A stretch of 25,439 bases of DNA from a virus (lineage: Duplodnaviria > Caudoviricetes): IMG/VR virus record IMGVR_UViG_3300021425_000172, positions 1 through 25,439 of that record. One strand, written 5' to 3'. The position numbers and the translations under genes are program-made. Within the stretch, counting starts at the first letter, position 1; every line of letters starts with the position of its first letter. The notes under the pieces were generated by a model. That model worked only from the letters and a program-made list of their open reading frames with translations. It did not search any database and had not been told where the DNA came from. This document shows positions 1,043 through 25,439 of the stretch, piece by piece.

Positions 1043-1071
1043 TTGACTTATGATAAATAATAGTATATAAT
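1043..1071 (+). promoter_or_regulatory. Sigma70 promoter P2 with ATAAATA embedded in its spacer
   Basis: TTGACT (1043-1048), 17 nt, TATAAT (1066-1071); ATAAATA at 1053-1059. Confidence 0.8.
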
Positions 1072-1095
1072 GTGTAATATAATAGGAGAATTAAA

Positions 1096-1524
1096 ATGGC
1101 AACTAATACACAACTTTCAATAGAAATAATGTACAAGCTCAAAGAGTTTCTTAATAATGAAATTCGTCAGAATGGTGAAATACAAATCAATAATAACCGT
1201 ATATGGAATGGCTGGCTACACAAAATGGACAATGAAGTATGGTATGGCATACTTCGCACATTACAACAATTAGAACGTGAACGCGGCGTACACTTTACAA
1301 TACATCAAAGTGAAGCAGTGCGTCAAGGTCTAGAACTACTAGACAAATATTCAGATTATTATGACAAAGTACTTGACATGAACAATCGTCATGTCAAAGC
1401 CAAAAGTGTTGCTTGGAAATGTTTACACACTGTTAGAGAAATATGGAATACGGCAGTAGGTGAAGATTTACCAAATAGCAATGTCAGTCGTGTTAAAACA
1501 AATTTTGGAGATATATTTGAATGA
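1096..1524 (+). CDS. Hypothetical protein (142 aa, probably helical)
   Basis: AGGAG at 1084-1088; first gene after promoter P2; no motif recognised. Confidence 0.85.
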   Translation: MATNTQLSIEIMYKLKEFLNNEIRQNGEIQINNNRIWNGWLHKMDNEVWYGILRTLQQLERERGVHFTIHQSEAVRQGLELLDKYSDYYDKVLDMNNRHVKAKSVAWKCLHTVREIWNTAVGEDLPNSNVSRVKTNFGDIFE

Positions 1525-7564: not shown

Positions 7565-7956
7565 TGAGGACTCAAGTTATTGATAAAATTAAGGATCTAG
7601 CACTAACAGGTTACAATGTTAGCGTTGAATCTCCTTATGATGATAGCGGAAATCCTCTTTATATAAAAGATCCAAAAGTCTTTTATATTGACCACACCCA
7701 AACTGTACAAGAACCATTGTTCTTAGGTTTGGATGGATTGAATATAAACAATTCTACAACTTCAGTTACTGTTTACTTTACAGTTGACGCAAAGAACGTT
7801 CCAGCAAACTATGAAACTACAATCAATAGTTTGAAGGGCATAAAAGATACTATCAGTTTTGATGGTAGTGTTACAAGAAATTGTAACGTTAGTACTTCAT
7901 ACGAATCAGATTTAATGATTAGTGAGGTGGAATATAATTTTACTAGGATAACATAA
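7564..7956 (+). CDS. Putative tail terminator/neck protein
   Basis: 130 aa, between adaptor and tail tube; TAATG coupling; synteny. Confidence 0.5.
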   Translation: MRTQVIDKIKDLALTGYNVSVESPYDDSGNPLYIKDPKVFYIDHTQTVQEPLFLGLDGLNINNSTTSVTVYFTVDAKNVPANYETTINSLKGIKDTISFDGSVTRNCNVSTSYESDLMISEVEYNFTRIT

Positions 7957-24088: not shown

Positions 24089-24379
24089 ATGGACAAGACA
24101 ATACCACCAGAAATTGCACAACGACTTAAAAAAAATAGAAAAGGCAACATAACTTGTGAGCCAAAAGCTATAAATTTTTGTGAAGACTGTGGTAAAGATA
24201 TTGGTGGCCAGCACAGAATATGTAAGGCGCAGGTTAGTAATAGAGTTGAAAAACATTGGCACATAAGATGTAATATATGCAACCTAATACAAAATCCTCA
24301 TACCAAAAAGTATGAATTTAACAGTTGGGAAGACAAACAAGCCTATTTAAAAGGGGAAAATGATAATAAAGATAAATAA
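24089..24379 (+). CDS. Putative zinc-finger protein (96 aa)
   Basis: CEDC ... CNIC; TTAAATA (24077-24083) 5 nt upstream; no SD. Confidence 0.7.
   Translation: MDKTIPPEIAQRLKKNRKGNITCEPKAINFCEDCGKDIGGQHRICKAQVSNRVEKHWHIRCNICNLIQNPHTKKYEFNSWEDKQAYLKGENDNKDK
24372..24378 (+). promoter_or_regulatory. T4-type late promoter motif ATAAATA driving candidate sRNA 2
   Basis: Overlaps the stop codon of the zinc-finger gene; the first RNA stem begins 5 nt downstream. Confidence 0.6.
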
Positions 24380-24382
24380 TAT

Positions 24383-24556
24383 TGTAAGCAGTGAAGCTAG
24401 TTTCCATTAAACTTTATCTTTATTGCCATTTAGAATGAGTTCCTATATAGGTGATCTGCTTACACTTTATATCATAACAGTTCTGACATGTATTGATATA
24501 ATTTTATTCCTATTATGACTTTAAACCCCCAGCGATAACCTCAAAGGGGGTTTTTT
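24383..24556 (+). ncRNA. Candidate multi-loop antisense RNA 2 (~175 nt)
   Basis: Stems TGTAAGCAG/CTGCTTACA (24383-24391/24456-24464) and TTATATCA/TGATATAA (24467-24474/24494-24501), then a terminator. Loops are complementary to translation-start regions. Confidence 0.65.
24523..24556 (+). terminator. Rho-independent terminator
   Basis: AAACCCCC, 15-nt loop, GGGGGTTTTTT. Confidence 0.75.
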
Positions 24557-24560
24557 CTAG

Positions 24561-24605
24561 TTGACAAACCTAAAAAATGGTGTTATTATACTAAAGAGAT
24601 AAATA
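24561..24605 (+). promoter_or_regulatory. Sigma70 promoter P3 followed by ATAAATA
   Basis: TTGACA (24561-24566), 17 nt, TATTAT (24584-24589) with extended -10 TG; ATAAATA at 24599-24605. Confidence 0.8.
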
Positions 24606-24625
24606 ATAATAGGAAGGCAATAGAG

Positions 24626-24925
24626 ATGAAAGCACAAGACAGAGAACAACAGCAATTGATTGGTTATTGGGCAAAGACCCAAGGCTTTAGTCTCAAGGCC
24701 TTAGAACGTACAGATTTATCTACACTACAGGCATTGCGTTTGGCATCAAACTGTTTAAAACAAAGACAGTTTCTTAACCAACATGACATTACTACATTTG
24801 CAACATACATAAACAATTTTCGCACAGGCAAAACTATTAATAAGGCACATACCGCAGGCGTATTTCGCAAGGCTAGACGACTACAACGTTCACAGGCAAA
24901 GACCACGAGAAAAGCAACTCGTTAA
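24626..24925 (+). CDS. Hypothetical basic protein (99 aa)
   Basis: AGGAAGG RBS; Arg/Lys-rich C-terminus; has its own promoter; followed by a structured non-coding tract. Confidence 0.8.
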   Translation: MKAQDREQQQLIGYWAKTQGFSLKALERTDLSTLQALRLASNCLKQRQFLNQHDITTFATYINNFRTGKTINKAHTAGVFRKARRLQRSQAKTTRKATR

Positions 24926-24940
24926 ACCAGTGCTCAAAAA

Positions 24941-25190
24941 CCCTAGTTGTAATATTGACGGCTAATGACCTAGGTGTGTTAGATGTTGCTGATACAGCAT
25001 CTAATTATACAGGGCCGCAGATTTGCTCACTACATTCAAGGAAACTTATGTAGCAGAGTTGGAAGTTTCAATGCATCCGTCTTCCATAAAATCTGTATCA
25101 GTCGTGTGTGAGAGTTCAAGACACACGAGACGGCTATAGTAAGAGTGTAGAAGCACTATTTTTTTTGTTTCTCCTCTTACTATAGCCGTC
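24941..25190 (+). ncRNA. Highly structured non-coding element (candidate ncRNA or origin)
   Basis: Nested stems with G-U pairs, a GAAA tetraloop, and a perfect 17-bp stem at 25129-25145/25174-25190. Confidence 0.5.
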
Positions 25191-25312
25191 GTATGACTTC
25201 AAGTTCAAGTTAAAATTAATTGTTTAATATCACTTGTTAGTTTGAGCGATAGCAAACATGAGCTCTGATAAGAGCGAATACACTTAACGCAGTTAAGTGT
25301 CTTGATTGTTTG

Positions 25313-25439
25313 TGATAATAACAATCTTGTGTAAATATGCTTGCAAGGAGTAAAATTATGTTGATTGAATATGTTGCTGATCTCAAACAAGATCTTGAAC
25401 TTGAACAGTTGATTGATGAAAATCTCATAGATGAATGGT
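25313..25439 (+). repeat. Terminal overlap, copy 2 (identical to 1-127)
   Basis: Exact match to bases 1-127. Confidence 0.97.

Follow-up and report, generated by a model that had tools for sequence, protein, structure and literature searches.

A family of predicted antisense small RNAs with a conserved start-site complement in small uncultured phages carrying T4-type late promoters

A new family of predicted small RNA, its general kind already known, was found in about 30 distinct small uncultured phages, which keep the unit at the end of the virion operon. One of them is the phage analysed here, IMG/VR record IMGVR_UViG_3300021425_000172, of which the whole stretch of 25,439 nt is referred to as the window. 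With moderate confidence, and judged from sequence, the RNA would act as a late-made brake on several early gene starts driven by sigma70-type promoters. The window is a complete phage record with a terminal repeat of 127 nt, a GC content of 36% and a coding share of 94%. Its plus strand carries terminase, portal, capsid and tail genes, and none of the scanned ORFs was recognised as a polymerase, primase, helicase or integrase. The terminase shows 43-46% identity to those of the nearest named relatives. By layout, the nearest named genome is DSL-LC06, which has been placed together with 50 uncultured genomes in an orphan cluster (PMC10611076).

The unit lies on the plus strand, 3′ of holin-like and Cys-rich genes. 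As the initial annotation had described, an ATAAATA (24372-24378) is followed by a structured unit, a terminator, a sigma70 promoter and a gene for a basic protein of 99 aa. The TAAATA box (24373-24378) has the sequence of a T4-late-type promoter core and stands 4 nt before the stem, a spacing that is the same in members found via protein homology. T4 spacing places position +1 at about G24384, the start of the stem, and the fold, the family alignment and the family model delimit a predicted small RNA of about 173 nt (24384-24556). Closing stem P1 (24383-24391 with 24456-24464), based on fold and covariation, encloses a large loop, the whole spanning 24383-24464. The seed in this loop (24413-24430), delimited by alignment, pairing with leaders and accessibility, consists of a lineage-specific 5′ extension matched to the next leader (24413-24423) and an invariant core A-n-UGCCAUU (24422-24430), complementary to AAUGGCA. 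Opening the seed costs at most 1.5 kcal/mol in 26 of 27 members. Further along the loop a first anti-Shine-Dalgarno element (24440-24446) reads UUCC here and CUCC in most members; it is kept in 14 of the 16 members found without a seed pattern and in 29 of 31 clusters. Folding predicts a second hairpin (24467-24501) with CUGACA (24483-24488) in its loop. A second anti-Shine-Dalgarno stretch (24492-24516), recognised from duplex pairing with gene starts, has 10 nt paired with the starts of genes 24626 (the 99-aa gene) and 1096, and by sequence and fold the unit ends in an intrinsic-terminator-like hairpin with a U tract (24523-24556). The fold z of the window unit was -1.94, with 8 of 200 shuffles as good. 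No tRNA or tmRNA was found, and Rfam gave no match to the unit in the window or in six loci including the window region. An upstream hairpin (24358-24387/24402-24431) was considered as a conserved read-through mask and rejected, being present in only 2 of 27 members (the window and, weakly, L005).

Members were recruited through homologues of the 99-aa gene, through the element behind that gene and through pattern scans. The first pattern scan returned mostly ordinary minus-strand genes, and tighter patterns with a stem filter were used instead. Under one rule 31 clusters at 85% identity were obtained, given here as about 30 because L067 is probably a chance hit, L020 is doubtful and the rule does not cover a longer form (L219/L255). 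The common layout is a TAAATA box, 4 nt, the closing stem, the large loop, one or two hairpins and a U tract, and in the loop A-n-UGCCAUU precedes CUCC or UUCC. Among 25 sequences 93.9% of the closing-stem cells are paired and two-sided changes occur in 7 of 10 pairs, a count that is too high, since 22 of the 25 are pattern-scan hits retained for their stem energy; in slid controls the paired share does not exceed 57%. A scan that made no use of the seed gave 57 hits, of which 20 had the closing stem (16 distinct) and 37 fell below the stem cut-off, three of the latter bearing the seed. UGCCAU was present in 15 of the 16 distinct members and CGCCAUU, one change away, in the remaining one, so the seed is no artefact of the search patterns. 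The family model also matched loci beside homologues of both target proteins (L157, L152/L154, L275). Around the 99-aa family, 8 of 11 distinct loci with enough context carry the unit, while at L016, L017 and L020 it does not stand next to the gene. The RNA model did not match DSL-LC06, where its best hit had E 1.4. No description of the RNA or of this phage group's promoters was found in the literature, the alignments of PMC10690425 lying outside that search, and the RNA could be among the 8,495 unnamed IMG/VR candidates described there.

A related arrangement was seen at L017 (3852-3955) and L154 (about 7690-7796), where a hairpin of TAAATA-n4-TGTAG type is fused in cis to the leader of a 99-aa-family gene, its loop complementary to bases preceding the ATG.

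In the window, the pairing proposed in the initial annotation between the loop and the start of the 99-aa gene was confirmed in its details. Positions 24413-24427 form 15 consecutive pairs with 24616-24630, covering the ATG at 24626, and both non-Watson-Crick positions are G-U (24415/24628 and 24420/24623). The adjacent Shine-Dalgarno sequence is matched twice, by 24440-24446 (with 24609-24615) and by 24507-24516 (with 24606-24615); the two anti-Shine-Dalgarno stretches compete for the same bases of the leader, and the combined duplex of 15+7 pairs carries a 12-nt bulge on the small RNA side. This target site (24606-24630), supported by energy and covariation, comprises the Shine-Dalgarno sequence, a GGCA docking site (24616-24619) and the ATG, with a net energy of -19.1 kcal/mol after opening costs. 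The comparison with other gene starts that the annotation had called for placed the next gene best of 34 (-25.2, the next at -20.8), yet only third among non-self 50-nt windows of the genome. A run of at least 15 pairs with the start of 24626 arose in 14 of 3000 shuffles and the duplex energy of -25.2 in none of 3000, and a run of that length with any of the 34 starts was reached in 229 of 1500. The pairing case from the window by itself is thus suggestive and weak; that the pairing is more than chance follows from the covariation among relatives.

The covariation between loop and target in related genomes, named by the annotation as a check, was found: 50 of 54 cognate cells pair, against 290 of 420 after swapping partners. 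Nine members dock on a GGCA of the next leader. Over helix positions 5-10 their 54 cognate cells comprise 45 Watson-Crick pairs, five G-U, one A-C and three others, and position 5 is paired in every case, as U-A in five members, G-C in three and A-U in one. The cognate assignment is the best of all permutations for seven pairs (p = 2e-4) and reaches p = 2e-5 over all 17 pairs with a same-strand leader, values that overstate independence because the members are related and that are biased towards cognate pairs by the choice, in each member, of the best GGC behind the downstream promoter. L030 has only four pairs with its next leader, and members with an ATG-GC start show weak cognate specificity (ranks 1-10 of 17). 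Taken together, the intermolecular covariation is strong support for a predicted pairing between small RNA and leader. Phage small RNAs usually come to light when a single infection is sequenced, and it is difficult to infer what they target. The family gives small RNA and target together, with intermolecular covariation as a rare kind of evidence for a trans-acting pair, and the natural variants of small RNA and leader are ready-made compensatory tests.

The conserved part of the loop, UGCCAUU..CUCC, is the complement of GGAG-N-AAUGGCA. By its sequence it is a generic module of anti-AUG-GC and anti-Shine-Dalgarno elements, and the next gene is one of several predicted targets. Gene 24626 starts with ATG-AAA, so that the invariant CAUU has no partner there, and the next gene has a start of exactly the GGAG-N-AAUGGCA type in L169, L202, L215, L171, L192, L085, L258 and L275. 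An intermediate form, AAAGGCA-n4-AATGGCA, occurs in L157, L171 and L192. Over 29 loci, ATGGC or AGGCA stands at 25 of 30 genes that come first behind a sigma70-type promoter and at 75 of 235 other genes, a count that omits 24626 and contains a mis-called start for L255. Where the module is inverted (L181, L199, L207, L209), the top-scoring start is that of the module's first gene, often with matching Shine-Dalgarno flanks. In these four loci and in L157 the module lies on the opposite strand at a distance of 0.5-1.9 kb and still carries the site, which requires action in trans. In several members (for example L182, L215, L192 and L210) the score of a structural gene equals or exceeds that of the neighbour, and starts with a Shine-Dalgarno sequence and AUG-GC are common; the core is therefore generic. 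An accessible seed and conserved, covarying complementarity to target leaders were found, as expected of a trans-acting antisense small RNA. Of the repressor put forward in the initial annotation, the conserved, structured and separately terminated RNA with a covarying loop stood, but not its dedication to the next gene alone.

A second predicted target in the window (1043-1102, plus strand) consists of a TTGACT-17-TATAAT promoter with an embedded TAAATA, followed by the start of gene 1096-1524, where GGAG (1085-1088) precedes AAATGGCAA (1094-1102). Its net energy is -11.1 kcal/mol, and the homologues of gene 1096 in L274 and L275 keep the promoter and the GGAG..AAAATGGCA start. A possible third site (25346-25365, plus strand) holds the Shine-Dalgarno sequence and ATG of the 60-aa ORF 46-228 in its terminal-repeat copy. 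It forms 20 consecutive pairs with 24492-24511, seen in 3 of 1500 shuffles, and no equivalent of this match was present in 23 relatives, which makes it specific to the window. Upstream of gene 1096 lies a second ORF-free unit (890-1042). Its promoter, near 890, is of TTGACA type, a terminator-like hairpin runs to about 1041, and a stretch (936-944) is complementary to the first codons of 1096. The start sequence AGAGGAGACAGCGTAATG is common to three successive genes of L004 (4720-5390).

The promoters of RNA and target were compared with those of T4. T4 late promoters are described as TATAAATA at -13 to -6, read by gp55, the first base being poorly conserved in relatives (PMC1524935). In the window, TAAATA boxes precede operons at 20, 243, 1054, 5469, 8510, 17389, 24078, 24373 and 24600, and 8 of the 12 copies on the plus strand are found outside coding sequence. 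The box is present before 5 of 13 operon starts here and before 5-8 of 12-17 in six related genomes or parts of genomes, and it occurs at operon starts in all seven family or related genomes. The corresponding figures are 15 of 44 in T4-like HTVC008M (100 of 147 kb) and 0 of 12 in HTVC112P. As in T4 (PMC1524935), the TAAATA stands before virion operons with no -35 box and a predicted start about 6 nt downstream. In contrast to T4, where gp55 works with gp33 and gp45, no gp55 or gp45 was detectable in the window or in 17 family loci (tblastn, E<1, with one HTVC008M query each, which a divergent factor would escape), and the box is also found inside or behind sigma70 promoters of early genes.

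The target gene itself has such a dual promoter (24561-24605, by sequence), with a sigma70-type part at 24561-24589 (TTGACA-17-TATTAT with TG, 11 of 12 positions matching) and a TAAATA at 24600-24605, and the same pair is present in relatives. The initial annotation had read the target as driven by the host RNA polymerase and lacked the TAAATA at 24600; its sigma70 promoter is there, but only as one half of the pair. Since no gp55-type polymerase factor was detected, the polymerase would probably be that of a helper phage, and a helper-dependent late transcription with borrowed gp55 is plausible from the gene content. DNA polymerases of families A and B were each found in 0 of 5 genomes; the annotation of HTVC112P also lacks a DNA polymerase, so this absence alone is no proof of helper dependence. 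The phages of 25-37 kb, including DSL-LC06, form a candidate helper-dependent group. The RNA marks small phages that have T4-type late promoters but no detected late sigma factor as candidate helper-dependent satellites that make their own virions.

The controlled module was examined as well. The 99-aa gene (24626-24925, plus strand) encodes a basic protein of the QLIGYW family. Its model is confident and all-helical (pLDDT 93); Foldseek found nothing in PDB or BFVD at E<=0.001, and the best VIA Z was 6.5, to generic bundles. Two assignments were rejected: T4 gp59, an atlas lead with a score of 0.88 that failed profile comparison (probability 0.04), and a DnaB N-terminal domain, hit in 5 of 80 members at E 0.006 or weaker, which is too weak. 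The product of gene 1096, considered as a hidden sigma factor, gave a model with pLDDT 86, a best VIA Z of 6.1, again to generic bundles, no Foldseek match and no atlas hit. Neither product yielded an assignable fold.

Nine AGGC copies at 24615-24897 (in 320 nt, with 0.87 expected) are the densest array in the genome. They use the rare codons AAG, CAG and GGC (5 of 7, against 6 of 80), and the array is kept in relatives and also in the ORF-free leaders of L030, L038 and DSL-LC06. The repeats are possibly protein-binding. The array must have a role of its own, as the seed has GCCA in place of GCCU and the array also exists in DSL-LC06, which lacks a match to the RNA, and the GGCA docking site, being the first of the array, has another reason for conservation.

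Behind the gene lies a conserved structured non-coding element (24930-25310, plus strand), recognised from nucleotide conservation and covarying helices. It is more conserved in nucleotides than the 99-aa gene, has two-sided changes in 33 of 60 predicted pairs and a T-rich loop, and ends in a GNA-triloop hairpin (25277-25303). Rfam gave no match to this element, which moves with the 99-aa-family gene when the module is inverted (L157) and may be considered a candidate origin or primer RNA. The slot beside the RNA is variable between members, with primase and helicase in L209 and L201 and unassigned genes of 229-516 aa in others. From these other members, rather than from the window, the slot is probably a replication module. 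In L038 and L173, about 245-930 nt after the TAAATA of the RNA, some 600-700 nt without a long ORF follow a dual promoter, and the RNA keeps 9-10 Watson-Crick pairs with the 5′ end of this region; as a paired leader exists there without an ORF, outcomes other than a block of translation are possible. A similar ORF-free stretch fills the slot in L030. All three stretches are possibly large non-coding or primer RNAs.

In the proposed mechanism, the conserved hairpin would be transcribed from the T4-late-type TAAATA as a trans-acting small RNA, by a gp55-type polymerase that is probably a helper phage's. Its open loop would pair with the Shine-Dalgarno and AUG-GC starts of sigma70-driven early transcripts and block entry of the 30S subunit. 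In the lineage of the window the seed would dock on the GGCA just upstream of the ATG; the bases 5′ of the seed would have co-evolved so that the helix reaches the start codon, with the core keeping its fit to gene 1096. If the module that is silenced has its role in replication, the RNA would be a brake from early to late. Such a route by RNA would be added to the early-to-late switch, and a generic module could be re-aimed at whatever module is swapped in.

The same RNA and pairing could control the whole downstream transcript instead, the real object being the element at 24930-25310 and not the protein, through premature termination as with P4 CI or through folding of a primer RNA as with ColE1 RNA I. 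The pairing of L038 and L173 with a roughly 700-nt ORF-free region speaks for this, as do the element, which outconserves the gene and has covarying pairs and the GNA-triloop hairpin, the AGGC array along the leader, and the primase and helicase that fill the slot elsewhere. We nevertheless think this unlikely: in most members the site is exactly the Shine-Dalgarno sequence and start codon, the spacing of anti-Shine-Dalgarno and anti-AUG elements suits a ribosome site, the element is no more than a candidate origin, and control of the whole transcript could itself follow downstream from a brake on early starts.

Another reading has the core aimed mainly at mRNAs of a T4-like helper or the host with GGAG..AAUGGC starts, the matches to own genes being secondary autoregulation. 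The core is invariant also where the next gene has no AAUGGCA, no AATGGC start was found in the examined DNA of L191/L073 or L140, 8 of 106 HTVC008M genes (100 kb), including those for tail tube, tape-measure and VrlC, have such a start, and SviR, as described (bioRxiv 10.1101/2022.04.08.487710), is a precedent. HTVC008M is only a stand-in for the helper, however, and its best score (-22.9) is weaker than that of the own target (-25.2). Such starts are also seen in 5 of the 32 window genes, several of which are structural genes, and in 4 of 51 HTVC112P genes, indicating neither avoidance nor specificity. Outside targets as the main aim are accordingly improbable. A broader version, to which we would give a small chance, holds that the phages of 25-37 kb are widespread satellites of T4-like phages which sense the late sigma factor of the helper, and that the RNA may mask both their own replication module and helper virion genes with GGAG..AUG-GC starts. 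If true, the RNA would be a general start-site mask, one loop mimicking the 16S anti-Shine-Dalgarno and the initiator anticodon.

Pairing in cis, within a read-through transcript past the terminator into the next gene, is slightly less probable still than outside targets. Both helices form when 24383-24640 is folded as one molecule, and in L017/L150 and L152/L154 a similar hairpin is joined to a leader of the same gene family, but a terminator and a fresh promoter separate unit and target in every member examined, and the site is kept on opposite-strand modules or more than 1 kb away. That no functional RNA exists, the unit being a relic inverted gene start or minus-strand mini-ORF and the match a product of duplication and AT-rich chance, is very improbable: on the minus strand the loop does read as a textbook Shine-Dalgarno sequence with ATG-GCA, the early scan hits were mostly ordinary genes of that strand and the window seed also pairs with 24365-24376, but the minus-strand frames stop after 3-5 codons without a common peptide (L182, L210, L038, L215, L171), stem and loop-to-leader both covary, G-U exceeds A-C by 5 to 1 and the upstream hairpin masks the seed in two members only.

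The proposed late-made brake on early starts was compared with known systems. ColE1/ColE2 RNA I are copy-number RNAs encoded in cis on the opposite strand and fully complementary to their targets. The likeness is an antisense RNA directed against the 5′ terminus of a transcript that runs on into a candidate origin or a rep gene, whereas the RNA here is a separate gene with a match of 6-15 nt. The initial annotation had compared the unit with P1 C4 and P4 CI without recognising a family. The absence of an Rfam match agrees with the latter. The RNA would work in a similar way to C4, CI and SviR but, on the comparisons below, belongs to none of them. P4 CI is described as processed from the leader of the operon it controls, pairing with the flanking seqA and seqC, causing premature termination and maintaining lysogeny (PMC4825925). 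Shared with CI, as described, are a small antisense RNA on the strand of its targets, imperfect pairing at several sites and a place upstream of, or in control of, what is here a probable replication module in a satellite-like element. The present RNA is not processed from the leader of a controlled operon with targets on both sides: in all members it has its own promoter and a terminator upstream of the target promoter, it also has predicted opposite-strand targets, and it shows a T4-late-type promoter, an anti-Shine-Dalgarno and anti-AUG seed, and no integrase seen here.

C4 of P1/P7 is described as lying within the c4-icd-ant operon and serving lysogeny (PMC8198154), and it is likewise, on that description, a phage-encoded antisense repressor of adjoining genes. 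Rfam models of C4 type gave no hit at gathering score in the window and none at E<=1 in six loci, and icd and ant had no PHROG or Pfam match among the neighbours of the unit, which match nothing else either. SviR of the Vibrio cholerae PLE satellites is described as trans-acting, conserved throughout its family and directed at several targets; its induction depends on the helper, and PLEs are chromosomal islands parasitising ICP1 (bioRxiv 10.1101/2022.04.08.487710). The likeness, compared by description only, is that of a family-wide conserved, trans-acting satellite small RNA with several targets. The phage of the window is not a PLE by gene content; in contrast to a PLE it encodes its own head and tail, and helper targets are a possibility.

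A hairpin with CUGUCA in its loop near the 5′ end of the RNA could form a kissing pair with a downstream CUGACA or CUGACG. Candidates were seen in L038, L085, L171, L173, L192, L199, L210, L212 and L157, and the window has the downstream half only.
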